NCBI GenBank assembly: GCA_034190675.1
Contig: JAXHSS010000003.1
Coordinates: 1-45,701 of the forward strand
DNA from: Pseudomonadota bacterium
Lineage (GTDB): Bacteria > Pseudomonadota > Gammaproteobacteria > Pseudomonadales > JAXHSS01
Direction: 5' to 3'
DNA: 45,701 bases
The translations under genes and the position numbers were made by a program. Positions within the stretch are counted from its first letter, which is position 1. Each line of letters opens with the position of its first letter. The notes beneath the pieces are model-generated. The model was given only the letters and a program-made list of their open reading frames with translations. It was not told the DNA's origin and did no database searches. Shown here in pieces: positions 19,596-40,296 of the stretch.

Positions 19596-19608
19596 ATTCC
19601 AAACCCTC

Positions 19609-19640
19609 AAAAAACAAAAAAGCCCCTAAAAAAGGAGCCA
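19609..19640 (-). terminator. Terminator/attenuator-like hairpin immediately upstream of rimP
   Basis: On the minus strand the sequence is GGCUCCU-UUUUU-AGGGGCU followed by UUUUUGUUUUUUG. The stem has two G-U pairs. Its position matches the leader terminators known upstream of rimP-nusA in E. coli. Confidence 0.45.
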
Positions 19641-19683
19641 TCCGACAGTTTCAAAGCAAGCGAAAAACCGATGCTTAAAACCA

Positions 19684-19907
19684 CAACATTGCCGACCAAA
19701 ACACAAGTCAGCGCTGAATTTGATGCGAAGAGTACAAGAAAAACCGTTGATAATCAAGAAGTTTTGCTGATCAGCACCTGCCTGCAACAAGTGCTTTTCA
19801 GCACAATCAACACAGACTTGGAGACAAAACTTTTATTGAGATTTTAAGCAAGCAACACTTTTAAGTGCTCGCCTACTTTTGAAGGCCTTTGATGTTGGTA
19901 GCGGGGG
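19684..19907. repeat. Left 224-bp direct repeat (tRNA-rimP spacer plus last 12 nt of tRNA-fMet at 19896-19907)
   Basis: It aligns base-for-base with 34901-35124. I count 5 substitutions (19730, 19757, 19772, 19828, 19880) and no indels. It ends in tggtagcggggg, which is the complement of CCCCCGCUACCA. Confidence 0.92.
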
Positions 19908-20790
19908 AGGAAAGCCCCGCCATGGCCAGGCTCACGTCCCAGAGCCGCCCAGCGGTTGCTTTGTCTTTGGCCTTTTTTGCCATACGGGCTGGTTTGCTGT
20001 TGGAGAAATAGCCTCTAGTTACTGATGCAATATCAGGTGAGCTTGCTAAGTAGACGCTGGTCTCTGCCCCTTTTCTGGCGTAATTAACAAGGGCCTGACC
20101 CATTGAATGATTTGTTGCCGATCCCTGACTCATTGTTCTGTCCAAATCCACTGCGCACGGCCCCTGGGTGCAAGGCGTTCGCGGTGACTGCGGTTCCCTC
20201 AAACCGTCGTGCCAGCTCCTGAGTGAATAAAACGTTGGCTAATTTCGCGTGATTGTAGGCGTGTATTCGGTGAAGCGAACTTCGCACTTGAGGTCATTGA
20301 AATCAATTTTACCTACCCAGTGGACTATAGACGATACTGTAATAATTCGAGCAGGCGCCGATGCCTTAAGCAGGTCCAACAGTAAATGGGTTAGTAAGTA
20401 ATGGGCCAGATGGTTGGTGCCAAAGGTCATTTCGAAACCGTCTTTGGTGAGCAGTCTGTCCTTGTTCATGCCTCCAGCATTGTTCACCAGTACGTCTAAG
20501 CTGTTGGTCTTAGCCCTCACCTGTTCCGCCATATCGCGCACAGAGTCAAGATCACTGAAATTACTTTCAACAAACTCAACCTAGTGGTTGCCGGTGCTCT
20601 CTTTGATAGCTGTCACTGTGTGGGCTCCCTTTTCATGGTTACGCACATGGACAAAGACCCGTGCCCCCCATAGACGCCAGCGCATCCGCTGTTTTCTCAC
20701 CCACGCCATTGGTGGCCACGGTCACCAATACGGCTTTACCTGTCATGGAGATACTGGAGGAGTTGTTAACTGCTGTTGTCATGGAAAGAA
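19908..20790 (-). pseudogene. Short-chain dehydrogenase/reductase (retinol-dehydrogenase-like SDR), disrupted
   Basis: The SDR sequence is spread over at least 4 frames. MTGKAVLVTVATNGVGEKTA (cofactor-binding motif) is followed by a frameshift in a G/C run near 20671-20678. An in-frame TAG lies at about 20581-20583. Later pieces are LVNNAGG, IITVSSIVH and [18 protein letters not shown] (YxxxK). The last frame reads through the island junction into the tRNA fragment. Confidence 0.75.
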
Positions 20791-20913
20791 ACCCTAAATT
20801 AATTTTATTGTTTTCACATTTCGTTCACGACGGCTTCACCATCCATTGACGAAGAGGGTTTTAAAGTCTTCGAAGAATCAATAGAGGCAGAAGCCTCACC
20901 AACCAAATGGAGA

Positions 20914-22350
20914 ATGAAAATGAAGCCATCAAAACTGACTAAAATAGCGGTTGCAGTAAGCAGCTGTCTAGCCCTAATCGCCTGTGACGACGACGACTCT
21001 ACAAATGAAGAGTCATTTTCCGCAGGGGAGCTGCGAGTGATCCATGCCTCTCCCGATGCACCACCAGTTAACGTTCTGCTGAATGGAGATGAAGCCATCG
21101 CTGACCTAGATTACGCACAAAGCACAGGCTTTACACAGCTTAACCCAGGCAGTTATGACATTCAAGTGGAAGGTATTATCCCTGGAGGCAATGCAACTGT
21201 TATCGACGTGCCTGGGTTTGAAATCACCGAAGAGTCCAGCCCCACGGTCTTAGCCGTAAATACGGTATCCAGCATTGAGCCCATTGTGGTGGAAGAGTCC
21301 GCAAGTACCCCCGAAGACAACCAGGTGGCTATTGTTGTGGCTCACGCAGCGCCAGTGGCAGGTGCTGTTGACGTTTACCTGACTGCTCCAGGAGACGATA
21401 TCAGTAGATATTCTCCTGCGTTAAGTTTTGACTTCAAAGGCAGCGTGGACGCTGGAGCACTTGATGCGGGTGAGGTGGAGATCCAGGTGGCCATTGGCGG
21501 CGCGGTGGTCTACAACTCTGGTGCTGTTGACCTCACTGCTTTTGCTGGTCAATCCATCATGATTGTTGCACTTAACAGTGAAAATGAAACCGAGAACAGC
21601 GCGTCTCCCATTAAATTGTTGGTGGCCACAGATGAAATGAGCTTAGAGCTGACGGACGTCGACACAACTGCGGCAGCGCGGGTGGTACATGCGTCACCAG
21701 ATGCGGCGGCGGCCGCGGGCGGTGCGGTGGAAGTGTTTGCCACCAGTGCTGCGTTGGGCACGGATCCAGTGGAATTGATTGATGGTTTCAATTATACCGA
21801 TGTGGTGCCTGCCACCGACAGCTACGTCCCAGTCCCACAGGGCGCCTATACTTTTGACGTGGCCCCCGATACGGACATGATTGGCGATAGCGTATTTACA
21901 TCTGATGACCTGGAGCTCATGGCTGGTGATGAGTACACGGTTATAGCCCTTGGCAGGGTATTGGGCACCCCAGAATTCAGCTTACTGCCTGCGGAAGATG
22001 ACAACCGCGCTATCGCCACCCAGGGTAGTGTGAAGCTGACCCACGCGGCCCCTGCAGCGGGTGATGTGGATGTCTACGTCACCGCTGGAGGTGAATACAC
22101 CACGGCAGATATTGAAGCGGGTATAGTGTCTGAACCCTTGATTGCCGGTTTTGCTTTTGGTGATGCCACCGATTACGTAGCCATTGCCCCTGGGAGTTAT
22201 GACATCCGAGTGGTGGCCGGTGGTAGTGTAGCCATAAATGTGGAAGGGCTAGATGTGATGGGCGGCGATGTGCTGCATGCTATTGCTCGAGGGCCAAGTG
22301 AGCCTTCTGGTTCCATTGCTGACTTCGGTGTGATTCTGTTGAGCAATTAG
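20914..22350 (+). CDS. Lipoprotein with four DUF4397-like repeats
   Basis: The signal peptide has the lipobox LALIAC. Four repeats share the pattern (V/L)(I/V)HA(S/A)PDAP/AAG.VDV...G.YD(I/F).V. GGAG lies upstream of the ATG. Confidence 0.8.
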   Translation: MKMKPSKLTKIAVAVSSCLALIACDDDDSTNEESFSAGELRVIHASPDAPPVNVLLNGDEAIADLDYAQSTGFTQLNPGSYDIQVEGIIPGGNATVIDVPGFEITEESSPTVLAVNTVSSIEPIVVEESASTPEDNQVAIVVAHAAPVAGAVDVYLTAPGDDISRYSPALSFDFKGSVDAGALDAGEVEIQVAIGGAVVYNSGAVDLTAFAGQSIMIVALNSENETENSASPIKLLVATDEMSLELTDVDTTAAARVVHASPDAAAAAGGAVEVFATSAALGTDPVELIDGFNYTDVVPATDSYVPVPQGAYTFDVAPDTDMIGDSVFTSDDLELMAGDEYTVIALGRVLGTPEFSLLPAEDDNRAIATQGSVKLTHAAPAAGDVDVYVTAGGEYTTADIEAGIVSEPLIAGFAFGDATDYVAIAPGSYDIRVVAGGSVAINVEGLDVMGGDVLHAIARGPSEPSGSIADFGVILLSN

Positions 22351-22599
22351 AGTCTAACAGCGTACGTGACGGAGCCTCCCTCCTGGTTGATTGGGGAGGT
22401 TCCCGCGATGGCTGTTTTCAAGCTTAGTGAGAAAAATTCGAAGCGTAGCGCGATCAATAAAAAAACTGCTTAAAAATCTTTTTGGTGCAACTACTGCTTG
22501 TGAGCAGTATGGCCATGAATGGTGTATTGGCAGCCCCTCTTATTCCTGAGGAGGTTCTTGTCAATCAGACGTTGCAGAGGTAATCGAAATTCTTTTGGC

Positions 22600-23175
22600 A
22601 ACGTTACAGCGAGGACCCCAACGCACCGCTCCCCAACTCCCTCATTCTTCTTGTCTACCTCGTTCGCGACGATGATATGCAATCCATTCCTCAGTGGTTG
22701 CATGATAAACCCATGTGAAAGAGCCGAGCCAGACATTATGGCTCCAACCCCATTGTTCATTTGTCCCAAAACGACAACGACACTTTGTTTTTGGTGTTTA
22801 ACGAGCAGCAGGTGACCCGTTTGTCTTTTTTCTTTGGCATTTTGTCTCTAACCCTAGTGCTGCTAGTGATGCATGGAGCGGCGTACGGGATTTACTGGTT
22901 CAGAAACTTGCTGGGGAAATGCGCAATTGCGACGTGAACGGGGCTGCTCCCACGTTGGATTTCAACGATCCCGTGTGGAATGCAGATGAAGAAACCTATT
23001 GGTGGATGCCATTAATGGCTTGATCCAGCGCGTGCAACAACTGGTAGACCGATAGCGAAATTTTACTCGCTACGCCAGCCATGAGCTGCGTACCCCTTTA
23101 ACTGCTGTAAAAGGTTCGGCGGCGAATTTAGAGCGACAAAATCTTGACGTTTTCATAGAAAATCTCCTAGATTAA
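22600..23175 (+). pseudogene. Sensor histidine kinase remnant (TM2, linker and H-box only)
   Basis: A TM segment LSFFFGILSLTLVLLVMHGAAYGIYWF is followed by frameshifts near 22915 and 22990. An in-frame TAG at 23053-23055 sits where Q is expected (LVDR*RNF). The H-box is FTRYASHELRTPLTAVKG (His codon 23080-23082). The frame stops at 23175, about 30 aa later, so there is no ATPase domain. The left boundary is approximate. Confidence 0.65.
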
Positions 23176-23210
23176 ATCATAGTAAATCTTCTACTTAAAA
23201 CTCCTGTTAT

Positions 23211-23411
23211 TTATTGGGGGGGGGGGTACACAAGAATCAAAGCAACTCCTAAAATAACCACAATCGCCACAACCAGATAAAAAACGTTCTGGCTTCCAAA
23301 GTAAGCTATGACCTTATCTTCAAATACATTTTGGATAACTAACGAAAAAAGATAGTCAACTATTCCTACGCTACCTGTGACGCCAATAGCTTTCAACCAA
23401 AAATTTTCCAT
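23211..23411 (-). CDS. Small hydrophobic protein (2 predicted TM helices), function unknown
   Basis: A 66-aa ORF beginning 3 nt after the hsdR stop. It has two hydrophobic stretches. The C-terminal YPPPQ is encoded by the homopolymer tract. Coding status is unproven. Confidence 0.4.
   Translation of the reverse strand: MENFWLKAIGVTGSVGIVDYLFSLVIQNVFEDKVIAYFGSQNVFYLVVAIVVILGVALILVYPPPQ
23216..23226. repeat. Homopolymeric G11 (C11 on coding strand) tract
   Basis: Read directly from the sequence as ttattGGGGGGGGGGGtaca. Confidence 0.95.
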
Positions 23412-23413
23412 AC

Positions 23414-26400
23414 TTACTCCCTACCCAAAACAGAATAGTCTGAGTTTTTTGTTGCAATAAGCAAATGCCTAAAAACAGCATCTGTTTTTTCTTCCACCTC
23501 GTCCGGTGCGAAACTTTCCGGCAAGCCAGTTTTCTCATCCCACAGGAAGTCCTTTATCTTGACTTTAATTTCATCACGAGTGCTCTGCTTGGCAGTAAAA
23601 TTCTGAATCCGGCCTAGCTCTTCCTTTATCGTCCTGTAAAGACCTTCGGCCACTTTTTTAATACGATCAATTTCTTTTTTGGAAAGGTCAGGCTTTAACA
23701 GCAAGTCAAACAGGGCTAAAGACTCTTCGCTTAGACCTTCTTTAACTGCTCGCTGCTCTTCTTCGCTCAGATCATCCACCAGTTTGAGCAAAGCTTCAAA
23801 CGTAGCCTCAATGGTTACGCGGTCTTTTTCGTTGTTATAGTCATTAACGATCTCTTCGTAGTGTCTTTGAAAATCCGTTCGTGTTGGGTTTTTCATGAGC
23901 ATTTTGAGAAGCTTTTTCTCGATGATATCTTTCAAAGATTGAACAGTGGTGTTCTTGGCAGGTGAACGTTCAAATTCTTTTCTTAGTCGCTCAAAATCGA
24001 TCTTGCTGATATCGTAAAGTTTGCTGGGCTCACGAACACCCGTATCAGGCTCAATGCTTCCCTCAATAACAGCGTGAAGTTCGCGCATGATGTCAGAGAT
24101 ATCCGCCTTCTCAACATCCTCTTGCAGGCTCTTGTAGATAATATTGATTGCGTCGTAGGCTGATCGGTAGTTATTTATGGCTTTGATGGTTAAACAAGCC
24201 TTGAACTTTTTGAAAACCTCGCGGCAGATAATTTCAAAGCGCTTGCGGGTTTCATCATTCTGGTTAACGACTTCTTTTGCATCAATAATGGCTTTGTTGC
24301 GCTCAAAGCCTTTTTTCTCCAGTACATCTTCCAATCTGAATTCTTTTGCTGCCAAAAACGCTCTTACTGCTTCAATCGTCTCTTCAAGGTCTGCCAGCAA
24401 TTCTTCTTCCGGTCTTACTGGATCAAGTTCTGGTGGTGGCTGTCCATTTCCACCTTCAACGCCCGTATGACCAGCAAAGGTCGCAAGGGCTTTGCGCAAG
24501 TTTTTCAAGATGCCGCAGTAATCAACGATAAGCCCGTTATTCTTGCCCTCGGCCACGCGGTTTGCGCGGGCGATGGCCTGCATCAAGGTGTGCGCCTTGA
24601 GCGGTTTATCGAGGTAAAGGGTAGACATGGTTGGTACATCAAAGCCAGTGAGCCACATGGCGCATACGATGGCGACACGGAACGGATGCTCTTCCTCCTT
24701 AAAAGCGCTCTCCATATCAATGCGCTTGCCGTCGGGTGTTTCAAAGCCTTCTTTAATCAGCTTACGGTGGGGGGTAATATCAAGTTCCCATTTGCGGAAC
24801 TTATCGACCTCGCCTTGCTCCTCACTAACCACCACGGCCATGATGGTCTCTCGCATCCAGACAAGCTTGCGCTCCATGTCCGCTCTTTTTTCATGAGCAG
24901 GGGCTTGCTCATCAGCCAGCTTGGGCAGCTCCTTTTCAAGCTCAGCAATTTTAGCCTGCCACTTCTCAAGAATAATCTCCTGCATCCGCACACAGGTGAT
25001 CTTATCGATGCAGACCATCATCGCCTTGCCATTCAAGCCACCCACGCTGTAGTGCTCGACAAAATCTTCAGCGATTTGCTCCAGGCGGCTTTGCGCAGTA
25101 ATCAGGTGGTAATCACGCTTTAGCTCACGCTCCAGGCGCTCTGCCACATCCCGATCTTCAATTTCAACTTTTTCCAGCTTGGCTGCGATCTTCTCGTTGA
25201 GATCATTGGTTGCAATGCCAAGCTTTTCACCGCGAGCATCGTAGTAAAGGGGCACAGTGGCTTTATCTTCCACAGCACGTTGAAAGTCATAGGTGGAGAT
25301 ATAATCCCCGAATACGCGGCGGGTGATTTCATAATCCTTGAAGAGCGGCGTTCCGGTAAAACCGATATAGCTGGCATTAGGAAGCGCATTGCGAAAGTTC
25401 AGTGACAAGCGGCCATATTGGGTGCGGTGCGCCTCGTCGGTAATAACGATAATGTCATTCCGATCTGAATAAGGATCGTCGGGATCAACATCTTTATTGA
25501 ATTTCTGCACCAGCGTAAAAACATAAGCCTTATGCTGATTTAACAGCTTTTGTAAATGATCGCCCGACCCAGCACGGCATGGGTCTTGGTCATTATCAAC
25601 AAGGCCGCACCCTGCGAAGGTGTTATAGATTTGTCCATCCAAATCTTCACGGTCAGTACAAATGAGGAAAGTAAAGTTGCCGCCTAATTTACGATGAATC
25701 TTGCGAGCGAAGAAAACAATCGAATAGGACTTACCCGAGCCCTGGGTATGCCAGAAAACACCGAGCTTGCCTTTGCGCTCTTCACGGTTCTTTACCGCTT
25801 CAATAGCGCGGTTGACGCCCAAAAACTGGTGATTACGGGCAATGATTTTGACCAGCTTGCCCTTGCTCTCATCAAACAACGTGTAGTTTTCAAAGAGATC
25901 AAGAAAATCCCGCTTGTTACAGATGCCTTTAAGCAAGGTTTCCATATCCACCACGCCTGGATCGTCTTCGGCTAAACGCTTCCAGTCATTAAAGTGTTCG
26001 AACTTACTGGAGATCGAGCCGATTTTTGCGTCCACGCCATTACCTAAAATCACAAAGGCGTTGTGATGGAAGAGATGCGGAATAGTGTCTTTATAATCGG
26101 AAAGGTTTTGCTCGTAAGCATGACGGATGTCTTTGTGAATGGTCTTGCACTCGATAAACATCAAGGGAAGGCCATTGACAAAACCAACGATGTCGGCACG
26201 GCGGCGGTAGATATCCCCGCGCACCCACAGCTCACGCACGCAAAGAAAGTGGTTGTTTTCGGGATTATCAAAATCAAAGACTCTCAGGCGCTTAAGCTCA
26301 AGCTCACCGTCTTTGTTGCGAAAATGCACCTTTACACCGTTTTTGATTAGCTCATATTGCTCAAAATTGATTTGCAATGTGTTTTCAGTCACAGGCGCTT

Positions 26401-26638
26401 CGGTGATCTGGCGCAAAGCATCCTGATAGGCGGCATCGGGCAGGCCAGGATTAAGCTTGACTAGCGCTTCGCCCAAATAGCGGGTGAGCACAACCTCTTT
26501 ATCAGAGGCCCGGCCAAGCGTGCCTTCCTTGCCAAAGGTCTCGTTGTTATAGGCGTAGATACTTTCCCAGCCAAGCTGCGCTTCCAGATAATCAGCCGTG
26601 GTTTGCTGAACCAATGTATCTTCGTTCAGGGGCGACAT
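23414..26638 (-). CDS. hsdR: Type I restriction endonuclease, R subunit (long, about 1074 aa form)
   Basis: Helicase motif I is WHTQGSGKS and motif II is VITDEAHRTQYG. The N-terminal region is nuclease-like and there is a long helical C-terminal domain. The gene is in an operon with hsdM and hsdS. Confidence 0.95.
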   Translation of the reverse strand: MSPLNEDTLVQQTTADYLEAQLGWESIYAYNNETFGKEGTLGRASDKEVVLTRYLGEALVKLNPGLPDAAYQDALRQITEAPVTENTLQINFEQYELIKNGVKVHFRNKDGELELKRLRVFDFDNPENNHFLCVRELWVRGDIYRRRADIVGFVNGLPLMFIECKTIHKDIRHAYEQNLSDYKDTIPHLFHHNAFVILGNGVDAKIGSISSKFEHFNDWKRLAEDDPGVVDMETLLKGICNKRDFLDLFENYTLFDESKGKLVKIIARNHQFLGVNRAIEAVKNREERKGKLGVFWHTQGSGKSYSIVFFARKIHRKLGGNFTFLICTDREDLDGQIYNTFAGCGLVDNDQDPCRAGSGDHLQKLLNQHKAYVFTLVQKFNKDVDPDDPYSDRNDIIVITDEAHRTQYGRLSLNFRNALPNASYIGFTGTPLFKDYEITRRVFGDYISTYDFQRAVEDKATVPLYYDARGEKLGIATNDLNEKIAAKLEKVEIEDRDVAERLERELKRDYHLITAQSRLEQIAEDFVEHYSVGGLNGKAMMVCIDKITCVRMQEIILEKWQAKIAELEKELPKLADEQAPAHEKRADMERKLVWMRETIMAVVVSEEQGEVDKFRKWELDITPHRKLIKEGFETPDGKRIDMESAFKEEEHPFRVAIVCAMWLTGFDVPTMSTLYLDKPLKAHTLMQAIARANRVAEGKNNGLIVDYCGILKNLRKALATFAGHTGVEGGNGQPPPELDPVRPEEELLADLEETIEAVRAFLAAKEFRLEDVLEKKGFERNKAIIDAKEVVNQNDETRKRFEIICREVFKKFKACLTIKAINNYRSAYDAINIIYKSLQEDVEKADISDIMRELHAVIEGSIEPDTGVREPSKLYDISKIDFERLRKEFERSPAKNTTVQSLKDIIEKKLLKMLMKNPTRTDFQRHYEEIVNDYNNEKDRVTIEATFEALLKLVDDLSEEEQRAVKEGLSEESLALFDLLLKPDLSKKEIDRIKKVAEGLYRTIKEELGRIQNFTAKQSTRDEIKVKIKDFLWDEKTGLPESFAPDEVEEKTDAVFRHLLIATKNSDYSVLGRE

Positions 26639-27636
26639 TAGCCTGCATCCTTTAGCAAAATAAAATGTTCAACCAAGCGGATCATCAGTTCTTTTTGATC
26701 GGGTTTACTCTCGGCCACTAATAAGGCCAAAGCCACCAGGGTATTGTCGTTTATGAGTTGCTCAACGGGCTTAGACAGCATGTGTTGGTGCAGCCGCAAA
26801 TACCACAAAAACAAAAACGAGCCGGTGCGTTTATTGCCATCTGCCAGGGGATGGTTCTTAATAACGAGATACAACAAATTGGCCGCACGACTGGCCACAT
26901 TGGGGTAAAACAGTTCGTCACCAAAACCCTGCTCGATGGTCGCAATGGCCGAGGCCAGGCCATCGCCACGCAGTTGGCCGAACAGTTCGGTGGCTTCGCC
27001 TTTGGCGATCAATTCTTTTTTAAGTTCGGCAACGGCCTTGAGTACATCACCCAATACCAGCGGCTGCATGGCGGCTTGTTTATGCTCGGTCTCGACCAAC
27101 GACTGCTCATCGTAGGCTTGCAGCAGGCTCCAACTGCGGGCGTAATCGCTGATCACCGCCAAGACCGCCGTGCCTTCGTTATTGACCAGCGCCTGATTGC
27201 TGAGTGTTTGGGATAATAGATCCACCGCTTGCTGGAACTCCACACCGCGCTGTTGCAGGCGCTGCTGGTTGAGGGTGTAGCCTTCCAACAAGTGTTGTTT
27301 CAGAGTTTGCGTCGCCCAGATACGAAACTGGGTCGCACGGGAAGAGTTCACCCGATACCCCACGGAAATCACGGCATCCAGATTGTAGTGTTTGCGCTGT
27401 CGCTCCACCTGTCGCTTGCCTTCGGTTTGAACTTGTAAGAAATCCTTACAGGTTGCAGGCTCATCAAGCTCCTGTTCTGAATAGATATTTTTTAAGTGCT
27501 GGGTGATATTTTGCGGTTTGACTGCAAACAGCTCTGCCATCTGGGCTTGAGTCAGCCAAACAGTCTCTTCAGATAGTCGCACGTGTACCTGCGCCTGCCC
27601 ATCTTCCAACTGGTAAATTTCAATTTGTTTATTCAT
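26638..27636 (-). CDS. RhuM-family N-terminal domain fused to Fic/Doc-type domain
   Basis: The N-terminus (WLTQAQMAELF...NITQHLKNIY...AVISVGYRVNSSRATQFRIWATQTLK) is typical of RhuM. The C-terminus carries the Fic/Doc active-site-like motif HPLADGNKRTGSF. Its stop overlaps the hsdR start (TAATG). Confidence 0.8.
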   Translation of the reverse strand: MNKQIEIYQLEDGQAQVHVRLSEETVWLTQAQMAELFAVKPQNITQHLKNIYSEQELDEPATCKDFLQVQTEGKRQVERQRKHYNLDAVISVGYRVNSSRATQFRIWATQTLKQHLLEGYTLNQQRLQQRGVEFQQAVDLLSQTLSNQALVNNEGTAVLAVISDYARSWSLLQAYDEQSLVETEHKQAAMQPLVLGDVLKAVAELKKELIAKGEATELFGQLRGDGLASAIATIEQGFGDELFYPNVASRAANLLYLVIKNHPLADGNKRTGSFLFLWYLRLHQHMLSKPVEQLINDNTLVALALLVAESKPDQKELMIRLVEHFILLKDAG

Positions 27637-27679
27637 GCTTAATCAGCCTGAACCCGCGTATCTTCATTGAGCGGTGCCA

Positions 27680-28918
27680 TCATACTGCAATCTCCCCGTT
27701 CATGAGTTTAGGAAGAAGGAGATCACGGGCTTGTGTAAGCCTGAAGATTTGATCAACTAAATTGAGACGTAATGTAAACAGGTTTTCCGTTTCATCCAGG
27801 AATGTGTTTAGTAATGTCTCTGGGGGAATAGGAAGTTCAATAGATTCAATCTGTTTGGCACTGATGTTTGGCTGCGCAGCTCCACCAGCCAAATTTAAAA
27901 TTGAAGACTGAGCCTTTTCTGAATTGAAAAAAGACAATAGTAGTGGCGTTACATCTCTGCCGATTTTTGTCTCAAACTTCCCAACCCGTTGATTTAGATA
28001 AAATGACCGCTCACTTGTAGGCATCAAGCCAACTTTACCAACTGTAGCTCCGGTCATAGCTATCAGCATATCTCCGGCAGACAATTTGAACTTGGCCGCT
28101 TTCTCTGCAACATTATCGTCAACGCACTGACAACCCGAAACATCAACAGTATTAGTACTTGTTATATTTTTAATTTTGATTACTGGGTTTCCTTCTTCGA
28201 GCCAATCCTTACTTTTAAAGGCATAGCCTGAAAACACTTTAGCAGTGTCTCCGACGCACCCAGCCGTCCACCCCTCCGGCACGCCATCAATAATTTTAAC
28301 ATGCTCATGGCCGGGGAAGCGGAAACGTACAAACCATTCTTTGTAAAGCTGCCGCGCTGATTCCTCCAGCAACTCAATCCGCCGCTTGTTGTTTTCGATA
28401 AGGTCGTCATAAGCTCCAATTACACCAACGATACGATTTTGGCTTTCTAAGTCAGGCACGTTGACTTTGAATCCTTTCAGCATCGTTAAGTTTATGTTCG
28501 GTTGTGCCGCCTGTCCTCCGCCAATGCCTTGGCACATTGCAAAGGTGCTGGGATTCTTGAAATGGTAGTAAATATAACGAGGATTAGCTTCTTCCTTTTT
28601 AACCCTAGCAATGCCAACTGCTTGGTTGGTGTTTGCAGGAACATCCGAAGGTCTAACATATCCACATTTACCAACGTTAGCCCCTGCAATAGTTACGAGC
28701 ACATCATGTTGCTGAAGCTTTGAACGCTTTAATTTTTCGTGGGTTTCGTCATCGATAAACGTAAAACCACTTCGATCAAGAGTGACATCCCCGTTGAGAG
28801 CCTCAGCTTTAACAAAGTTTATACCTTCGTCAGTGAATGGCATTCCATAAGTAGATGGCGTAGTCCCTTTTGTAACCACTTCGGTTATGTCATCAATACT
28901 TTTGACGCACCAACTCAT
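27680..28918 (-). CDS. hsdS: Type I R-M specificity subunit (two target recognition domains)
   Basis: The central conserved helix is NNKRRIELLEESARQLYKEWFVRFRFPGHE and the C-terminal conserved helix is RLTQARDLLLPKLMNGEI. The start overlaps the hsdM stop by 4 nt. Confidence 0.9.
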   Translation of the reverse strand: MSWCVKSIDDITEVVTKGTTPSTYGMPFTDEGINFVKAEALNGDVTLDRSGFTFIDDETHEKLKRSKLQQHDVLVTIAGANVGKCGYVRPSDVPANTNQAVGIARVKKEEANPRYIYYHFKNPSTFAMCQGIGGGQAAQPNINLTMLKGFKVNVPDLESQNRIVGVIGAYDDLIENNKRRIELLEESARQLYKEWFVRFRFPGHEHVKIIDGVPEGWTAGCVGDTAKVFSGYAFKSKDWLEEGNPVIKIKNITSTNTVDVSGCQCVDDNVAEKAAKFKLSAGDMLIAMTGATVGKVGLMPTSERSFYLNQRVGKFETKIGRDVTPLLLSFFNSEKAQSSILNLAGGAAQPNISAKQIESIELPIPPETLLNTFLDETENLFTLRLNLVDQIFRLTQARDLLLPKLMNGEIAV

Positions 28919-30945
28919 ATCCCCAACTCCTCAAAAATCTTCTGAATTTGAGCGGCAAGAGTAGCGGCTTCTTCGTTCAACCCTTTCAGCTCAATATGAA
29001 TATCACGTAGGGTTTCTTCAAAGTCGAAATCTTCGTCCTCGACCTCTGGTGCCACACCAACATAGCGCCCCGGGGTCAGGCTCCAGTCATTGGCTTTGAT
29101 CTCTTCGGTATCCACCAGCTTGACCAGGCCTTCCACATCAGCAAGCTGCGCATCAGGGAAGCGTTCTTGCAGCCAGTGGGCTTGTTTGAAGAAATAACGG
29201 ATCAGTTTTAACTGCTCGACGGCTTCTTTGCGCTGTTCATCAAGTGCTTTGATGGGTTTATTTAACCCCTTTTCACCGGCTTTTTTCAGGCGCTCTTGGC
29301 TGTCTTTGGCCTGCTTTTCAACAAACTTGTAGAGCTGGTCAATCTGCTTGATCAGGTCTCGGCTGGTTTCGGCTAAAGGTTCCAGTTTTTCAGCGGAGGC
29401 CTTCAGCCCCGCATTATCCTTCGCCGATTTCTTCCAAGCTTTGCTCTCGGCATCAATGCTGGCTTCAAATACGTTGATATCCTTAGCCAACACGTCAAAG
29501 GCGCTTTTCGTTTCATCATCGACTTCAGGGAGCTTGGCGATCAATTCATCCAGCCCGGCAATAAAGCCATCCATCTGCTCTTTGCTGGCCTTTGCCTCTG
29601 CAAGTGTGCGATCAAGGTAGCTTTCAACCAACTCCAAAAAACGTTCGTTCTGCCCACGATAAAGCCAGATGATAGAAGTCAGATTGGCCAGTTGCTCGGG
29701 CGAGAAGTCGTAAATTTTGCGCGTGACCTTGCGGTAGACATTGCGCGCATCGAGCATCAGCACCTTGTCTTTCATGGCTTCCGCTTTGTTCTTGTTAAAG
29801 AACCAAAGCTCACAGGGCACTGAGCGGGTATAGAAGAAGTTGGAACGGATGGCGACCATCGCTCCAACATGACCACTCTCAACCAGCTTGCGGCGTACCT
29901 CGGCCTCTTGCCCTCCGGCGCTTGATGCCTGTGAAGACATAACAAAACCTGCGCGGCCTTCGTCATTCAAATAACTGTAAAAGTAGGAAATCCAGAGATA
30001 GTTACCGTTGGAAACGGCGCCTTTCTTATTGACCCCCGGCAGCCCAAACGGCAAACGCGGATCGTTTTTAATTTTCTCCGCGTCCACGTCATCGACGTTG
30101 AATGGCGGATTGGCCATCACGAAGTTGGCTTTGCCGAGAAAATCATGTGGGTCTTCGTAATAGGAAATCGCCTTTTGTATTTTGCCTTCCAGCCCATGTA
30201 CCGCCAGGTTCATTTTGGCCAAGCGGATGGTGGTGGGGTTTTTCTCTGCACCGTAGAAGGTCGCTACATCTTGCGGATTCTTGTGCATCTTTTCGATGAA
30301 GTGTGCGCTTTGCACAAACATCCCGCCTGAACCACAAGCAGGGTCGATGACCGAGCCATGATCGGGTTCGATAAAGTTCACGATCATCTGCACCAAGGAA
30401 ACAGGCGTGAAGAATTCACCTCCGTCATGAGCGCTTTCGTTGGCAAACTGAGTTAGGAAGTATTCGTAGATGCGGCCAAAGATGTCGCCAGTCGCCTTTT
30501 TCAGAGCTGGATCGTTGAAAGTGCGCAGCAAATTACCAAGCACGTCATTGTCCAGCTCTTGATATTCGCTCTTGGGCAATACGCCTTTGAGAGTTTCGTA
30601 GTCTTCTTCAATGGCCTCCATCGCGTCGATGATAGCCTGGGCGCGGTCATCGCCCTCAGTCAGATTGATCAGATAATCGAATTGGGCTTTTTCCTGAAGG
30701 AAGATAGCGCCTTTACTGGAGAAGTCTTCCTTGGTGAGCGGCCTGGTCACGCCGCCTCGGGATGGCAAAGATGCTTCGATTTCTGGCTTCACCGCGAGAT
30801 AACGGCTATAGGCATGACGAAGGAAGATAAGCCCCATCACGGGCATAAAGTATTCATTGCTGGCGTAATTGCTGTTGGCGCGAAGGTTGTCGGCGCTGCC
30901 CCACAGTCGTTTCTCTATTGCTTCTATATTATCTAGCTGAGCCAT
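28915..30945 (-). CDS. hsdM: Type I R-M N6-adenine DNA methyltransferase subunit with about 200-aa coiled-coil insertion/extension
   Basis: The SAM-binding motif is VIDPACGSGGMF and the catalytic motif is VMANPPFN. I chose the start at ATG 30945, which has GGAG 7-10 nt upstream. The track's start at 30996 would overlap the upstream HTH gene. Confidence 0.93.
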   Translation of the reverse strand: MAQLDNIEAIEKRLWGSADNLRANSNYASNEYFMPVMGLIFLRHAYSRYLAVKPEIEASLPSRGGVTRPLTKEDFSSKGAIFLQEKAQFDYLINLTEGDDRAQAIIDAMEAIEEDYETLKGVLPKSEYQELDNDVLGNLLRTFNDPALKKATGDIFGRIYEYFLTQFANESAHDGGEFFTPVSLVQMIVNFIEPDHGSVIDPACGSGGMFVQSAHFIEKMHKNPQDVATFYGAEKNPTTIRLAKMNLAVHGLEGKIQKAISYYEDPHDFLGKANFVMANPPFNVDDVDAEKIKNDPRLPFGLPGVNKKGAVSNGNYLWISYFYSYLNDEGRAGFVMSSQASSAGGQEAEVRRKLVESGHVGAMVAIRSNFFYTRSVPCELWFFNKNKAEAMKDKVLMLDARNVYRKVTRKIYDFSPEQLANLTSIIWLYRGQNERFLELVESYLDRTLAEAKASKEQMDGFIAGLDELIAKLPEVDDETKSAFDVLAKDINVFEASIDAESKAWKKSAKDNAGLKASAEKLEPLAETSRDLIKQIDQLYKFVEKQAKDSQERLKKAGEKGLNKPIKALDEQRKEAVEQLKLIRYFFKQAHWLQERFPDAQLADVEGLVKLVDTEEIKANDWSLTPGRYVGVAPEVEDEDFDFEETLRDIHIELKGLNEEAATLAAQIQKIFEELGI

Positions 30946-30952
30946 TCGGCTG

Positions 30953-31135
30953 TTACTCCGTTTCTTTCTTCTTCTTTTCTTCAATCCAGCGTTCAATATC
31001 TTCGGTTTTAAAACGCCAGCTTCCTCCTACCTTAAAACCAGGTAATTTGCCTTCAGCGGCTAGCTTGTAAGCCGTTTTTTCAGCGAGCTTTAGGTAAGCC
31101 GCCACCTCTTTTAAAGTTAATATTTGATCAGTCAT
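30953..31135 (-). CDS. Small excisionase/AlpA-type helix-turn-helix DNA-binding protein
   Basis: 60 aa: MTDQILTLKEVAAYLKLAEKTAYKLAAEGKLPGFKVGGSWRFKTEDIERWI. It ends 7 nt before the hsdM start. The longer track ORF (to 31261) adds an implausible N-terminus. Confidence 0.75.
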   Translation of the reverse strand: MTDQILTLKEVAAYLKLAEKTAYKLAAEGKLPGFKVGGSWRFKTEDIERWIEEKKKKETE

Positions 31136-31551
31136 AGCATTTTCTGCCCTCATAACTATAGGGGAGAATATGGGAAAATAGATGAATTCACAACCAAAGA
31201 GATTTACGCTGGTGCAGTTATATACACTCGCATCCAAGATCGCGCCTTGGTCGTCCTCCACTGGCGAAACAGTGGTCGAGGTTAAGCGTCGAAATGCTTA
31301 CAGCATCCAATCCGCGCAGGGTTGGTCGAGGGAGTTCATGAGGGGCTATGGCTATGACATGCCCCTTTGATTGATGGGAAGTCCATGAAGGGAGAGCTAA
31401 CTTCTCCTTTCTGGTTGATGGGGTTGCAAGGGGAGAGCAAAATCTCAGCCTTGCCCATGGGGTTCTTAGGGCTTTGAGATTTGGCTCGCCCGCTGTTTCC
31501 TCAAAAAAAGCACAATAAGCGAACAACAGCACATAGAAGCACCTCGAAAAA

Positions 31552-31676
31552 AGCAACATATATGCTTCTTTTTGCCACTGAAAGACTTCAATTCTTCAAA
31601 AGCAACTTATATGTTGCTGAAGCTAAAAAAAGAAACTAATATGTTTCTTAATGGTAAATAGCAACATATACGCTTC
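31552..31676. promoter_or_regulatory. Four operator-like 17-18-bp dyad repeats upstream of the hipB-like gene
   Basis: The four copies are agcaacatatatgcttc (31552-31568), agcaacttatatgttgct (31601-31618), agaaactaatatgtttct (31631-31648) and agcaacatatacgcttc (31660-31676). The shared pattern is AGmAAC-N6-GyTTCT/GCT with dyad symmetry. Confidence 0.6.
31614..31642 (+). promoter_or_regulatory. Candidate sigma70 promoter of hipBA-like operon
   Basis: The -35 is TTGCTG (31614-31619), the spacer is 17 bp, and the -10 is TAATAT (31637-31642). The hexamers lie inside operator copies 2 and 3, and copy 4 lies in the leader. Confidence 0.5.
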
Positions 31677-31679
31677 ATT

Positions 31680-32018
31680 ATGAATTCACTACTCGAACAA
31701 ATCAAAAAACGCCGTATCGCATTGAAGCTTAAGCAGCACGATATGATGCTGCGCGTTGGTATATCGCGCCAGCAATATCAGCGCTTGGAATCCAAAGGCA
31801 ATCCGCGCCTCGATACTCTTGAGCTTGTCGCTAAGGGGCTTAAAAGTGAGTTGCTGCTGATACCACAAGAAAAATTGAATGCTGTGCTGGCGGTACTGGC
31901 CGACGATACTCTTTCACCCACTGGGCCATCAAATGGCACACCAAGCAAGACAGAAAAAGAACAAAGTAACCCACTGGCTGATGATCCATGGCAGGGTTTG
32001 CTGGGAGAGAATGAATGA
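31680..32018 (+). CDS. XRE-family HTH protein, HipB-like antitoxin
   Basis: HTH motif LKLKQHDMMLRVGISRQQYQRLESKGNPRLDTLELVAKGL. There is a 4-nt ATGA overlap with the downstream kinase gene. Confidence 0.8.
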   Translation: MNSLLEQIKKRRIALKLKQHDMMLRVGISRQQYQRLESKGNPRLDTLELVAKGLKSELLLIPQEKLNAVLAVLADDTLSPTGPSNGTPSKTEKEQSNPLADDPWQGLLGENE

Positions 32019-33319
32019 GCACAGATAGCAATGATGAAGTCAATGTTCTACAGCTCTCAATTCATGGCGTGCTGATCGGCTATCTCGCAGGGTTTAAGAA
32101 TGGCCGCAATGTTTTGAGCATTGCAGACTCATTTAAAAACGATCCTGAACGTCCGACATTCAGCCTGATTACTCATCCCGCGTTTCCGAATGCGGCCAAG
32201 CTCATGGCTGCGCCATGGGCGCGGAATCAACGGCTGCATCCTGTACTTTCAAACTTGTTACCAGAGGGATCATTACGTGAGCTGATCTCACAAGGCCTGA
32301 AAGTGCATATAGATAATGAATTTCACATTTTCTCGTATCTTGGCGAAGATTTGCCGGGAGCTATCGAAGCCACGCCCATGGAGCCTGAAGATGTTCCCGT
32401 CCTTTTATTAGAGAGTGTCCTGAGCACGCACGGAAAGGCTAAGGCAGTTAAGTTCGATAAAGATGCCATCTACAAAAAAGGAAGAGAAAACAAGTTTTCC
32501 TTGGCTGGCGTACAAATGAAGTTTTCCATGAAGGAGAAGGATGGGCGCTATAACTTATCCAAGGGTGACGTGCTGGGTGATTGGATCATCAAAACGCCCT
32601 CAACCAAGCACAAGTTTGTGCCATTGAACGAATATACCGCCATGTCGCTGGCGGGGCTCGTTGGCGTTGATATTCCTGAGATCAAATTGGTTGAGCTGAA
32701 TCAGCTCGACAATCTGCCACAAATTAACTTACCCGATGAAAAGCAGGCCTTTGCCATTAAGCGATTTGATCGTGACGACGACATGCGCATTCACATGGAA
32801 GACTTCGCGCAAATTCTGGTGAAGTATCCGCACGAAAAATACACTTCGGCCAATTATGAGAATATCGGTAAAGTCATTTATGACTTTTCTGGCGACGGCC
32901 TTGCCGACGCTCAACAGTTCGCAAGGCGATTACTGGTGAATATTCTCTTGGCCAATGGCGATGCACATCTCAAGAACTGGAGCTTCTTGTATCCTGATAA
33001 GATCACGCCACGGCTGTCTCCTGCCTACGATATCGTTACAACCAATGTCTTTATCGAGAATGAAACCCAGTACGCGCTCAACCTCGGTAAAACCAAAGAA
33101 TGGTATAGCGTTACTATGGCGCACTTTCAGTCATGGGCAGATAAGTCGGGTATTCCGTGGCGAGCGATCAAACCTCATTTGGATGACACAATGACAAAAG
33201 CGAGAGAGTTATGGCCTGAGGCTCTGAAAGCGTTACCGATGGACGAAGCGCACAAAGATACGCTCAGAGAACATTGGGTAAAACTTCATGATGAATTCAA
33301 AATTAATGCCGTAAAGTAA
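32015..33319 (+). CDS. HipA-family serine/threonine kinase toxin
   Basis: The N-terminal region is a coupling domain (LSIHGVLIGYL). Other motifs are FSLAGVQMKFS and the catalytic loop LLANGDAHLKNWSFLY, followed by LSPAYDIV. Length is 434 aa. Confidence 0.88.
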   Translation: MSTDSNDEVNVLQLSIHGVLIGYLAGFKNGRNVLSIADSFKNDPERPTFSLITHPAFPNAAKLMAAPWARNQRLHPVLSNLLPEGSLRELISQGLKVHIDNEFHIFSYLGEDLPGAIEATPMEPEDVPVLLLESVLSTHGKAKAVKFDKDAIYKKGRENKFSLAGVQMKFSMKEKDGRYNLSKGDVLGDWIIKTPSTKHKFVPLNEYTAMSLAGLVGVDIPEIKLVELNQLDNLPQINLPDEKQAFAIKRFDRDDDMRIHMEDFAQILVKYPHEKYTSANYENIGKVIYDFSGDGLADAQQFARRLLVNILLANGDAHLKNWSFLYPDKITPRLSPAYDIVTTNVFIENETQYALNLGKTKEWYSVTMAHFQSWADKSGIPWRAIKPHLDDTMTKARELWPEALKALPMDEAHKDTLREHWVKLHDEFKINAVK

Positions 33320-33553
33320 GCCTGTTTTAAGAGTAAGCAGTGTATCAAACGCCGGAAAATTCAGAAGGAACAAAATCTGGTGTTTCTTCGGAGAAGAATT
33401 TTTTTGAACTAACAGAACCATTAAAAAGGGCCGAACAATGAATATGAATCAGGTGATGCTACCCGTTTCAAACATGGATGAAGCAACAGTTTTTACAGGC
33501 GAATGGGATTACACTTTATTACTGAGCTTTCGATAGTAAATTAAGTTTAAACT

Positions 33554-34450
33554 TTATTTAAAGCACTCTTTAAAAAAATTAACCAAAGGCCGTGTAATCG
33601 TTGTTTCCTTGGGCTCACCAATTGCTTTGGCAATTCCAATATGACTGTATTCACTGCCATCAACTATAGTGACGTTTACTTTGGCGGCTTTTAGCACATT
33701 GGCGAATTCCATGATTCTATTTTTTCTACGCTCTTGACCTCTTAAAGTTAAAAAGAAATGAGGGTAGCTTAACCCCTTTTTGACATGGTAATAAGGTGAA
33801 GCGTCTCGGTTTGCTTTTGGGTCAGAGCCGAAAGCATTAACAATCATTGGGATGCCTTGAGCAACATATTCATCGACCTTATAAACATCAATATCAATGG
33901 AAGCCACGCCTTTTATAATTGAAAAGGGTATATTTCTATCTTCTAAAAATTCGCGCTTGGTTCCTGCTAAAGATACTAAATGTGCGCCCGCACTATGACC
34001 AATTAAAGCAATTTTATTAGGGTTGCCACCGTATTTTGAAATGTTTTTGTACACCCAAGCCATAGCATCCGCTATATCATTATTATGATCAGGGTATTTA
34101 ATGCGATTATCGTCCATGCGAATTTTGAGAAGTTTCGGTCTTGGGCTGAGGCGGTAATTGACACCTACCAAGATCCAACCATTCTCAAGTGCTAAATTTC
34201 TTAGGTTTTCAACGCCTTCTGCCTTGTCACCAAGGTGCCAGCCGCCGCCATGAACCCATATAATGACTGGTTTTTGAGAGAAATTGTCAACGGTGGAATA
34301 GATGTCAAGGCTGACCCTTTCTGAGTCAACACCGGTTAAACTTTTATATTGAATGGTTTTAAAAGTAGTATTGTCAGGGGCAGGGGTTTTTGATGCCGAG
34401 CAGCTTGAAGTAAAAATCCCAATAATGAAAAGCACAATAATTTTGTACAT
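33554..34450 (-). CDS. Alpha/beta-hydrolase esterase/lipase, lipoprotein
   Basis: The signal peptide has the lipobox FTSSC. The oxyanion motif is VHGGGW and the nucleophile elbow is GHSAGAH. The gene is visibly AT-rich compared with its neighbours. Confidence 0.85.
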   Translation of the reverse strand: MYKIIVLFIIGIFTSSCSASKTPAPDNTTFKTIQYKSLTGVDSERVSLDIYSTVDNFSQKPVIIWVHGGGWHLGDKAEGVENLRNLALENGWILVGVNYRLSPRPKLLKIRMDDNRIKYPDHNNDIADAMAWVYKNISKYGGNPNKIALIGHSAGAHLVSLAGTKREFLEDRNIPFSIIKGVASIDIDVYKVDEYVAQGIPMIVNAFGSDPKANRDASPYYHVKKGLSYPHFFLTLRGQERRKNRIMEFANVLKAAKVNVTIVDGSEYSHIGIAKAIGEPKETTITRPLVNFFKECFK

Positions 34451-34547
34451 AGGATCCTTCTATATCAATAATAAATGTGATTAGTATATCAAAATTTAAT
34501 CATTGAGATAAAATATCAATTTTTGTTCACTGCTGTCCCGTTGACTT

Positions 34548-34900
34548 TCATATGAGTTTCATTTGATTAACATCGTGCAGCTTGCCATCAGGCGGGTCGC
34601 CTCTTAATAGCGCCATCCAGTCACGTTTATCAAACAAATTAAGCTGCAATAGCCGTAATAACTGCTGCATACTTTTTGTGAGTCCTGACTGAAATTTCAG
34701 AAATGAAATGAGTAGGTATACGCACATCGCTATCCATATTTTTGTCACCACCGCATTCTTACGGGTGCCAACAAATGATTTTATTTTCAGGTTCTGTTTT
34801 ACCCATTTAAAAAATAATTCCACTTGCCATCTGGCTTTGTAAATATCCATATTTGTCAGTTGCTTATACCAATCGTAATCATTGTACGCCTTATCAATCG
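34548..34900 (-). mobile_element. IS4-family DDE transposase, C-terminal fragment only (pseudogene)
   Basis: The fragment contains DKAYNDYDWY (second-Asp region) and YKARWQVELFFKWVKQNLKIK (Y-x2-R-x3-E motif). The N-terminal two-thirds are missing. The homology stops exactly where the right direct repeat begins. Confidence 0.8.
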
Positions 34901-35112
34901 CAACATTGCCGACCAAAACACAAGTCAGCGCTGAATTTGATGCGAAAAGTACAAGAAAAACCGTTGATAATCAGGAAGTTTTGCTGATTAGCACCTGCCT
35001 GCAACAAGTGCTTTTCAGCACAATCAACACAGACTTGGAGACAATACTTTTATTGAGATTTTAAGCAAGCAACACTTTTAAGTGCTCGCCTACTTTGGAA
35101 GGCCTTTGATGT

Positions 35113-35124
<12 letters not shown>
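34901..35124. repeat. Right 224-bp direct repeat (overlaps 3' 12 nt of intact tRNA-fMet)
   Basis: Partner of 19684-19907, with 219 of 224 positions identical by my manual alignment. Confidence 0.92.
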
Positions 35125-35189
<65 letters not shown>

Positions 35190-35204: not shown

Positions 35205-35233
35205 ATATTATCAACGAGGCATAGGCTTGTCAA
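35205..35233 (-). promoter_or_regulatory. Near-consensus sigma70 promoter for tRNA-fMet
   Basis: On the minus strand the -35 is TTGACA (35233-35228), the spacer is 17 bp, and the -10 is TAATAT (35210-35205). A GC-rich discriminator gcacggc follows. The tRNA 5' end lies 15 nt after the -10. Confidence 0.65.
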
Positions 35234-35751: not shown

Positions 35752-35820
35752 ATTATTTTTTGCGCAATTTGGATAATATAGGTTTGATACGAATATTGGT
35801 CAAATATCTTAAGAAAAATT

Positions 35821-36426: not shown

Positions 36427-36427
36427 C

Positions 36428-37744: not shown

Positions 37745-37751
37745 GACATTT

Positions 37752-40219: not shown

Positions 40220-40231
40220 TTTTTAAAAGCC

Positions 40232-40268: not shown

Positions 40269-40296
40269 CACGAAATTTTGCACTATTTCAGCAAGA

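Follow-up and report, generated by a model that had tools for sequence, protein, structure and literature searches.

A 15-kb mosaic accessory region between 224-bp repeats separates initiator tRNA-fMet from rimP-nusA-infB in an uncultured gammaproteobacterium

Background

How does an initiator tRNA gene come to stand 15 kb from the rimP-nusA-infB operon that directly follows it in related bacteria? This question is raised by one entire contig (45.7 kb, hereafter the window) of a metagenome-assembled genome (MAG) from an uncultured gammaproteobacterium. Between tRNA-fMet and rimP, this contig carries a block of accessory DNA that is bracketed by two direct copies of a 224-bp sequence, one of which overlaps the tRNA gene at its 3' end. 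A first-pass annotation, made from the sequence alone, described the block as an accessory island bounded by repeats that start inside the tRNA, and suggested from the divergence of roughly 2% between the copies that one of them had arrived with the incoming DNA.

In this report, we describe the anatomy of the locus, its joints, its age and its contents. We favor, with a probability of roughly 0.55, the reading that the 15 kb constitutes an old, vertically inherited and immobile mosaic insertion in the tRNA-fMet/rimP spacer, which would have originated as an illegitimate duplication-insertion joined at microhomology and has since decayed. Alternatives are discussed where the evidence bears on them.

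The repeat pair and the ancestral gene order

The features that define the locus are as follows.

35205..35233, minus strand: strong sigma-70-like promoter of the tRNA, TTGACA-17-TAATAT (consensus scan, 10/12 matches with TG)
35113..35189, minus strand: intact initiator-type tRNA-Met(CAT), that is, tRNA-fMet (ARAGORN; Rfam tRNA, 62.9 bits)
34901..35124, minus strand: right, tRNA-proximal repeat copy (S'), made of 12 nt of tRNA 3' end and 212 nt of tRNA trailer/rimP leader
19684..19907, minus strand: left, rimP-proximal repeat copy (S), with a 12-nt tRNA stub at 19896-19907 that is joined within CCCCC to a short-chain dehydrogenase/reductase (SDR) gene
19596..19683, minus strand: unique, single-copy rimP-proximal leader of 88 nt, with a terminator/attenuator-like hairpin at 19621-19639 (terminator scan)
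19134..19595, minus strand: rimP (Pfam; gene calls on Logan contigs)

The two copies align without gaps and differ at five of 224 positions (columns 47, 74, 89, 145 and 197, corresponding to 19730, 19757, 19772, 19828 and 19880), so that the longest exact stretch common to both is 55 nt. They are the only long repeat in the window; the repeat search called the pair as 229 nt with a spacing of 15217 nt, and every other repeat family is at most 41 nt long and imperfect. Between the copies lie 14,993 bp (19908-34900). The tRNA overlaps the right copy by 12 nt (35113-35124), and ARAGORN and Rfam detect no tRNA at the left copy beyond the 12-nt stub. The repeats, their five differing sites and the stub had all been described in the first-pass annotation, and every one of these details was borne out, as was the gapless alignment of the copies.

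Apart from a single close relative described below, the nearest relatives are three loci (L084-L086) whose NusA proteins are 63-65% identical to that of the window. Their gene order is tpiA, secG, tRNA-Leu(GAG), 78-133 nt containing a promoter, tRNA-fMet, ~155-180 nt and rimP, which places both tRNAs and rimP within ~400 nt. The promoter (TTGACA...TATAGT) lies at the same distance from tRNA-fMet as in the window, and the tRNA 3' end, CCCCCGCTACCA, is the same in the window, L084 and L086. Since tRNA-fMet and rimP are tightly linked in these relatives, DNA was inserted between them in the lineage of the window, and the claim that the insertion splits a tRNA-fMet/rimP unit therefore holds. As read from these loci, the ancestral state is tRNA-Leu, tRNA-fMet, ~160 nt and rimP.

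Not all bacteria in this part of the Gammaproteobacteria link tRNA-fMet with rimP. Where Marinobacter-type loci were scanned (L005-L082), rimP comes directly after tRNA-Leu(GAG), and no tRNA-fMet was found in between by ARAGORN. Among 86 loci, none has a tRNA-fMet stub near rimP.

Of the empty site that the first-pass annotation had proposed to look for in related genomes, no recent example was seen: tRNA-fMet directly before rimP occurs only in the distant relatives, and the close relative is occupied. A RimP scan of GTDB representatives returned that relative (99% identity) and otherwise only proteins of at most 55% identity, and the NusA search found no homologue between 98.8% and 65% identity. 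Apart from the close relative, the collections thus contain no RimP above 55% identity and no NusA above 65%, and by these protein comparisons the source organism is an isolated lineage.

Two novel joints

The DNA adjoining the two repeat copies inside the block belongs to the following genes.

34548..34900, minus strand: C-terminal third of an IS4-family DDE transposase (Pfam DDE_Tnp_1, profile positions 146-200/200; tblastn; sequence reading)
19908..20824 (approximate), minus strand: SDR pseudogene (Pfam adh_short on fragments; six-frame segments; orthologue in scaffold L089)

At the first joint, the end of S' is fused to the middle of the insertion sequence (IS) transposase gene, at about the codons for IDKAY. 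The sequence at the joint includes ...CGATTGATAAGGCG on the IS side and ...GGCAATGTTG on the S' side. The transposase remnant begins at ...IDKAY and includes the Y-2-R-3-E-6-K signature; about two thirds of the element are missing, and by its sequence the remnant is a dead IS. The boundary, as read from the alignment, is a breakpoint within the interior of the IS and corresponds neither to an IS terminus nor to an att arm. The position of this break therefore sets the 224-nt length of the repeat.

The second joint can be compared with the same DNA in another context. Window positions 19906-22864 have a counterpart of 90% identity in a metagenomic scaffold (L089), with homology stopping at the stub; the scaffold carries an intact 295-aa SDR gene, a DUF4397 gene and the start of a kinase gene. 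Its SDR gene ends with GGGCTTTCCCCCTCAACCTGA (...GGG CTT TCC CCC TCA ACC TGA), and the window has GGGCTTTCCTCCCCCGCTACCA (...GGG CTT TCC TCC CCC GCT ACC AAC...) at the transition from SDR to stub. The joint thus falls inside a CCCCC run that is common to the SDR end and the tRNA; nine of the 12 stub positions match, and three codons and the stop of a gene that is intact in L089 have been deleted. Beyond the SDR end, L089 runs into unrelated sequence and then into a gene for a TonB-dependent receptor (TBDR), which adjoins the cluster of SDR, DUF4397 and histidine kinase (HK) genes both in L089 and in a further locus, L099. Because the SDR cluster is located next to TBDR or panBC genes elsewhere, this end of the insert is not the terminus of a mobile element; on this comparison, it is a cut piece of an ordinary chromosomal cluster. 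Among the parts of the insert, a contiguous counterpart in another context was seen for the SDR-DUF4397-HK part only.

Search for a recombinase and the tRNA-island alternative

No integrase, resolvase or complete transposase was detected in any open reading frame (ORF) by using Pfam, NCBIfam, PADLOC and PHROG, and the leftover stop-to-stop segments of at least 45 aa contain no integrase or recombinase domain. Nor does the block have the form of a composite transposon: it holds a single IS remnant, its boundary lies inside the transposase gene, and the duplication measures 224 bp. The repeat search found no inverted repeats flanking the 15-kb block. Searches for the whole IS found no copy: a 23-mer had 0 matches in metagenome and viral contigs, and tblastn against plasmids gave only IS4-family relatives with at most 74% identity.

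These results bear on the strongest of the alternatives, namely that the block is a degenerate tRNA island, which we consider possible but rather improbable. It supposes that an element with a tyrosine integrase entered at the 3' end of tRNA-fMet, leaving the stub as attR, and that its integrase end was lost afterward. The loss might have occurred by imprecise excision of the lambda-dgal type, with breaks inside the IS and 212 nt into the host flank, such that the excised circle gained S and re-entered by homologous recombination in S; a tandem duplication followed by integrase-mediated excision of one copy would be an equivalent route. One scheme of this kind would cover the lost integrase end, the joint inside the IS and the length of the repeat, at the price of three or more separate events.

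Several features of the window are those sought by the Islander approach. A full tRNA gene (tDNA) is accompanied by its cognate 3' fragment in the same orientation (19896-19907), 15.2 kb downstream. Tyrosine integrases cross over at three sublocations within tDNA, namely the anticodon loop, the T loop and the T/acceptor junction (PMC4383910), and the stub starts at the last of these, on the correct side and in the correct orientation; the same point is also the sole C5 run, matching the C5 at the SDR end. Moreover, tRNA 3' ends are the usual targets of islands (PMC4383910), identity blocks at att sites can reach ~250 bp (PMC10111431), and the insert includes an HTH_17 excisionase-like gene.

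Set against these points, no integrase gene lies inside or overlaps the interval, nor does any remnant of one appear in the called ORFs and leftover segments scanned. The proposed attR cuts off the last three codons of a gene that is intact, and in a non-tRNA context, in L089. This terminus does not behave as an attP arm, since L089 has the same DNA with an intact SDR gene and other surroundings, and other genomes carry the SDR-DUF4397-HK end as a conserved cluster of the chromosome. Of the proposed island at the tRNA, we therefore retain the insertion of accessory DNA, but not an origin by site-specific integration, given the lack of a recombinase, the breakpoint inside the IS and the SDR gene cut at C5.

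A close relative and the age of the structure

The sole close relative, "Pseudomonadales bacterium MAG04" (JBPEWS010000197.1, L003), is ~96% identical to the window. In blastn comparisons, the identity is 95.1% over window positions 37439-34245 and 96.9% over 23221-17219. Both repeats are present in MAG04, and their boundaries are identical: the IS remnant again follows S', and the stub is again joined to the same SDR end. Window and MAG04 differ by 1.5-6% per 200 nt, alike in flanks and insert. Given this even divergence and the identical junctions, the structure predates the split of the two lineages.

One segment of the window has no counterpart in MAG04.

23222..34244, 11,023 bp: segment missing from MAG04 (blastn blocks; junction alignment; Logan contigs of the MAG04 lineage)

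This segment contains hsdRMS, the RhuM/Fic gene, the HTH_17 gene, hipBA and most of the esterase gene. The corresponding joint in MAG04 (3196-3203) connects about codon 68 of the esterase gene, just past the HGG motif, to a C-run after a small ORF downstream of hsdR. Because the esterase gene is full length in the window, the difference represents a deletion in MAG04, and not an insertion in the window. The first-pass annotation had held that relatives with both repeats in this arrangement, but without the restriction-modification (R-M) and hipBA cargo, would speak against its proposal. MAG04 is literally such a relative, yet it became one by a secondary 11-kb deletion, and what it demonstrates is an old, fixed structure rather than repeats unrelated to the insertion.

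In MAG04 the two copies differ by 25 substitutions and by indels of 16 nt and 1 nt. When all four copies are compared, two sites are specific to the position of the copy, and the rest are private to one copy, mostly a MAG04 copy. At the lineage split, as reconstructed from this comparison, the copies differed at two to three sites (~1%). The arrival of one copy with the incoming DNA, as had been proposed from the present divergence, is thus not needed.

We considered whether gene conversion lies behind the likeness of the window copies and rejected this possibility: the private sites of MAG04 are finely interleaved, and none separates the window pair from the MAG04 pair. A rate anomaly specific to the repeats was rejected as well; changes in the repeats are two window-derived versus 22 MAG04-derived, but the asymmetry is lineage-wide. 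With L089 as outgroup, a relative-rate test over 2952 nt (within 19906-22864) counts 60 MAG04-derived versus 15 window-derived changes (p = 1.6e-7), and the MAG04 lineage seems, by these counts, to evolve approximately four times faster at these mostly noncoding or decaying sites. Amino acid changes in NusA show no rate bias toward MAG04, with tiny numbers.

Reality of the assembly

An assembly artefact, which the first-pass annotation had itself raised, would require two unconnected sequences, the chromosomal site tRNA-S-rimP and an SDR-S-IS replicon or circle, to have been wrongly joined by way of the repeat. The contig does stem from a MAG, and short-k assemblies do break inside the repeat. 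In the Logan k=31 contigs of the window strain (SRR24907498-500), contigs stop exactly 30 nt (k-1) into the repeat, at 19713 from the rimP side and at 34930 from the IS/esterase side, as expected where one sequence has two continuations. However, with five differing sites between the copies, no more than 55 bases in a row are identical, a length that standard large-k assembly can phase. In addition, the same arrangement recurs in the independent MAG04 assembly, where the copies show 11% divergence and are distinguished by the 16-nt indel, and a Logan contig of the MAG04 lineage from another run, 99.98% identical to the MAG04 contig, spans the same order from S'-IS to SDR-stub-S. We therefore regard an artefact as highly improbable.

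Contents of the insert

Between the IS remnant and the SDR pseudogene, the insert carries the following features.

33554..34450, minus strand: intact alpha/beta-hydrolase esterase (BD-FAE / hormone-sensitive-lipase-like), GC 39%
31680..33319, plus strand: hipB (31680-32018) and hipA (32015-33319) (Pfam HTH_3, Couple_hipA, HipA_C)
31218-31559, minus strand: orf113, no family match
30953-31261, minus strand: HTH_17 excisionase/AlpA-like DNA-binding protein (Pfam HTH_17; PHROG excisionase/regulator; PADLOC mad1)
28915-30996, minus strand: hsdM, type I R-M (Pfam; PADLOC MTase_I)
27680-28918, minus strand: hsdS, type I R-M (Pfam; PADLOC Specificity_I)
26638-27636, minus strand: RhuM/Fic-DOC gene, embedded between hsdR and hsdS (PADLOC candidate PDC-S23)
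23414-26638, minus strand: hsdR, type I R-M (Pfam; PADLOC REase_I)
22430..23200 (start approximate), plus strand: sensor histidine-kinase pseudogene (translation; blastn)
20914..22350, plus strand: intact DUF4397 protein (Pfam)

The defence, toxin and decayed genes that the first-pass annotation had listed are present as described. HsdR, HsdM and HsdS each cover their full profiles (Pfam, PADLOC) and make up a complete type I R-M set. The RhuM-N/Fic-DOC fusion within it matches the candidate defence family PDC-S23 over its full length (PADLOC, E = 3e-168), and orf113 and the HTH_17 gene stand upstream of hsdM. The hip genes have the architecture predicted for HipBA, with an upstream HTH_3 antitoxin gene overlapping by 4 nt a gene for Couple_hipA and HipA_C domains. 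Upstream of hipB, from orf113 to the start of the gene (31548-31682), a motif of ~21-27 nt (AGCAACATATATGCTTC...) occurs three times in direct orientation and once as an inverted pair; these operator-like repeats (families D7 and I13) are probably operator sites for HipB.

Just downstream of hsdR, a small membrane-like ORF ends in a run of 11 C (23215-23235, minus strand, ...GTGTACCCCCCCCCCCAATAAA). MAG04 has 6 C at the same tract, and its deletion ends there. The 11-C tract may be prone to slippage.

The kinase pseudogene retains its H-box (SHELRTPL), but contains in-frame stops and frameshifts and lacks its 3' part; in blastn searches it matches the HK genes that follow DUF4397 in three other loci (L087, L088 and L097). 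The SDR pseudogene is scattered over at least three reading frames, and its last three codons and stop are replaced by the tRNA stub. DUF4397, HK and response regulator genes form a conserved chromosomal cluster in Ketobacter-like genomes, beside panBC.

The origins of the parts appear to differ. Homologues of the DUF4397 protein are found at 96, 92, 83, 73 and 70% identity. Set against the gap in NusA identity (98.8% to 65%), this series suggests that the DUF4397 segment has been shared horizontally, sparse sampling being an alternative. The best homologue of the esterase is 70% identical and the next ~50%, and the few organism-named ones are mostly from Bacteroidota; together with the IS4-family remnant (33554-34900), the gene has a GC content of 38-39%, versus 47% in the contig and flanks. 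Composition and homologues suggest that the esterase/IS part was acquired from another phylum. Base composition was rejected as a marker of the island as a whole: GC ranges from 38 to 54% within the insert, but its mean equals that of the flanks (0.47), and only sub-segments deviate. The insert is thus a composite mosaic, built in several steps, of an SDR-DUF4397-HK cluster fragment, an R-M system with RhuM/Fic and HTH_17 genes, hipBA, and a low-GC esterase with an IS remnant.

A second break and the rearrangement alternative

On its other side, tRNA-fMet has lost its linkage to tRNA-Leu.

35246-35545, minus strand: zapA, upstream of the tRNA promoter
35246-44960: block between tRNA-Leu and tRNA-fMet, with orf208, yicC, two fadL genes, ubiI, ubiH, pepP, ygfB and zapA

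The stop codon of zapA precedes the start of the tRNA-fMet promoter by 13 nt, and tRNA-Leu(GAG) is now separated from tRNA-fMet by 9.7 kb of genes of housekeeping type (35246-44848). The tRNA-fMet gene thus sits between two separate, independent disruptions of one conserved locus. In E. coli and many other gammaproteobacteria, zapA is followed by the 6S RNA gene; no Rfam match for 6S RNA was found after zapA. Downstream, the operon led by rimP continues as rimP-nusA-infB-rbfA-truB-(S15/rpsO leader)-pnp, the S15 leader being identified by Rfam. The 5' part of infB (16500-17500) is very strongly AT-skewed (to -0.39), contains short imperfect repeats, and looks like the ordinary repetitive N-terminal region of IF2.

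The second break invites a different explanation, an internal rearrangement with no horizontal acquisition at that time. The TBDR-SDR-DUF4397-HK region and the zapA-ubiH block would have been shuffled around tRNA-fMet by inversions or translocations with a small breakpoint duplication, and R-M, hipBA and IS would be later arrivals. This explanation draws on the broken link of the two tRNAs, the zapA gene without its following 6S RNA gene, the mean GC of the insert, which equals that of the flanks (0.47), and the similar GC of L089, which could come from a sister species. It sits poorly with the DUF4397 homologues at 92, 83, 73 and 70% identity, which, set against the NusA gap of 98.8-65%, suggest sharing across lineages, and with an esterase/IS part that is foreign by composition and phylogeny. 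We consider it doubtful.

Proposed origin

With the favored duplication-insertion, the two joints, the duplicated target, the lack of a recombinase and copies that were near-identical at their origin are all explained. The anatomy of the locus, the absence of a recombinase, the microhomology at one joint and the age of the structure in relation to the lineage split are shown by the data; from them, we infer a template-switch or other illegitimate mechanism and the order of events given here. The DNA could have been joined illegitimately at short microhomologies, for example by a replication template switch, or a linear or circular fragment could have been captured by a recombinational or two-ended illegitimate event. 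The incoming DNA, with an interior point of the IS4-family element at one end and the SDR 3' end at the other, would have come to follow the first 212 nt of the tRNA trailer. The copying (or joining) would then have resumed 224 nt back, in the CCCCC at the border of the tRNA T-stem and acceptor stem, to give the order tRNA - S' - [IS remnant ... SDR] - 12-nt stub - S - rimP. On this view, the two 224-bp repeats would be a passive target duplication, by which the tRNA keeps its native trailer and rimP its native structured leader. Later, the SDR and kinase genes decayed, and the MAG04 lineage lost 11 kb with R-M, hipBA and most of the esterase gene. Judged from its gene content, the working parts of the block are now its cargo, that is, restriction and defence, the HipA toxin and the esterase. 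At most, the repeats could support a rare, RecA-dependent loss of the whole block.

Several observations weigh against this origin. The stub starts exactly at the border of T-stem and acceptor stem, a crossover sublocation of tyrosine integrases (PMC4383910), and a tDNA with its 3' fragment in this configuration and orientation is that of a classical island. Integrase att identity blocks of up to ~250 bp are known (PMC10111431), and an excisionase-like HTH_17 gene is present. Furthermore, microhomology is readable at one of the two joints, and the searches yielded no full-length IS copy. Finally, the collections contain no genome of intermediate relatedness, and neither a recent empty site nor a source locus was seen.

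A more specific version, which we regard as unlikely, is that a large insertion (at least 4 kb, now 15 kb) arose by replicative template switching and that the duplication itself let it survive in front of an essential operon. Given the strongly structured trailer/leader RNA (z of about -4), only an insertion that left one copy on the tRNA and one on rimP might have been viable. If this version were true, a template-switch insertion of this size would be of a kind that has seldom been documented in bacteria. Transcription would also have been rewired, such that the strong initiator-tRNA promoter feeds the esterase gene and rimP-nusA-infB is driven from within or upstream of the dead SDR gene.

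Leader structure, transcription and wider meaning

The spacer duplicated in the repeats shows signs of RNA structure. The 300-nt rimP leader (19596-19895) folds better than shuffled controls (z = -4.0), as does S' alone (34901-35112; z = -3.5), and the tRNA-trailer/rimP-leader RNA has no match in Rfam. The metY-rimP spacer of E. coli provides the likeness to a regulatory leader, and the predicted folding is consistent with a regulatory leader of that kind. The rimP-nusA-infB leader could represent an uncharacterized structured leader RNA in this lineage. For an exact 22-mer within the conserved S core, there were 0 matches in JGI metagenome contigs. A 20-mer spanning the junction of tRNA end and S gave one match in a viral contig (L083), within a coding region and with no tRNA or further similarity, and was dismissed as chance.

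A sequence scan found no terminator-like site between the tRNA and the IS and esterase genes, and the tRNA promoter would now face S', the IS remnant and the esterase gene. Promoter scans found no consensus promoter within S, the rimP-side copy, and the essential operon therefore presumably needs a weak or an upstream promoter. The locus thus raises the question of how the essential rimP-nusA-infB genes are transcribed once they are apart from the tRNA promoter.

Overall, this is a further case of a degenerate accessory region beside a tRNA; its anatomy is instructive, and it is otherwise an ordinary decayed accessory region. It carries a caution for the calling of islands: the textbook signature of a tRNA with a displaced fragment and with defence and toxin cargo can arise or persist without a site-specific recombinase, and long flanking repeats can be target duplications from illegitimate events rather than att sites. 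It also indicates that the very conserved order secG/tRNA-Leu/tRNA-fMet/rimP-nusA-infB can be broken twice in one lineage.

Comparison with known systems

The locus resembles tDNA-integrated islands, as cataloged by Islander and TIGER, in that an intact tRNA and a displaced 3' fragment in direct orientation surround accessory DNA, here an R-M system, a toxin-antitoxin pair and an IS remnant. Unlike such islands, it has no integrase, and its repeat runs 212 bp past the tRNA gene, which is more than is required to restore the gene. Moreover, one end of the repeat is an internal IS breakpoint, and the other cuts a cargo gene at a 5-nt microhomology.

Aberrant excision of the lambda dgal/bio type loses the integrase-proximal end of the element and gains host flank, and homologous insertion then brackets the element by a duplication of that flank. 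When followed by homologous re-entry, this process gives a topology identical to the present structure; unlike in the lambda case, there are no phage genes and no evidence of an integrase element here, and what is proposed as attR falls within a gene.

Microhomology-mediated duplication-insertions share with the locus the target duplication, the joint at CCCCC, an insert known in another context and the lack of a recombinase. The locus differs from them in its large insert (at least 4 kb, now 15 kb) and in a source locus that was not seen in this genome.

Finally, the metY-rimP-nusA-infB locus of E. coli is like that of the nearest relatives, with an initiator tRNA directly upstream of rimP and a structured spacer with terminator-like elements. 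In the window, unlike in E. coli, the tRNA and its strong promoter stand 15 kb from rimP.

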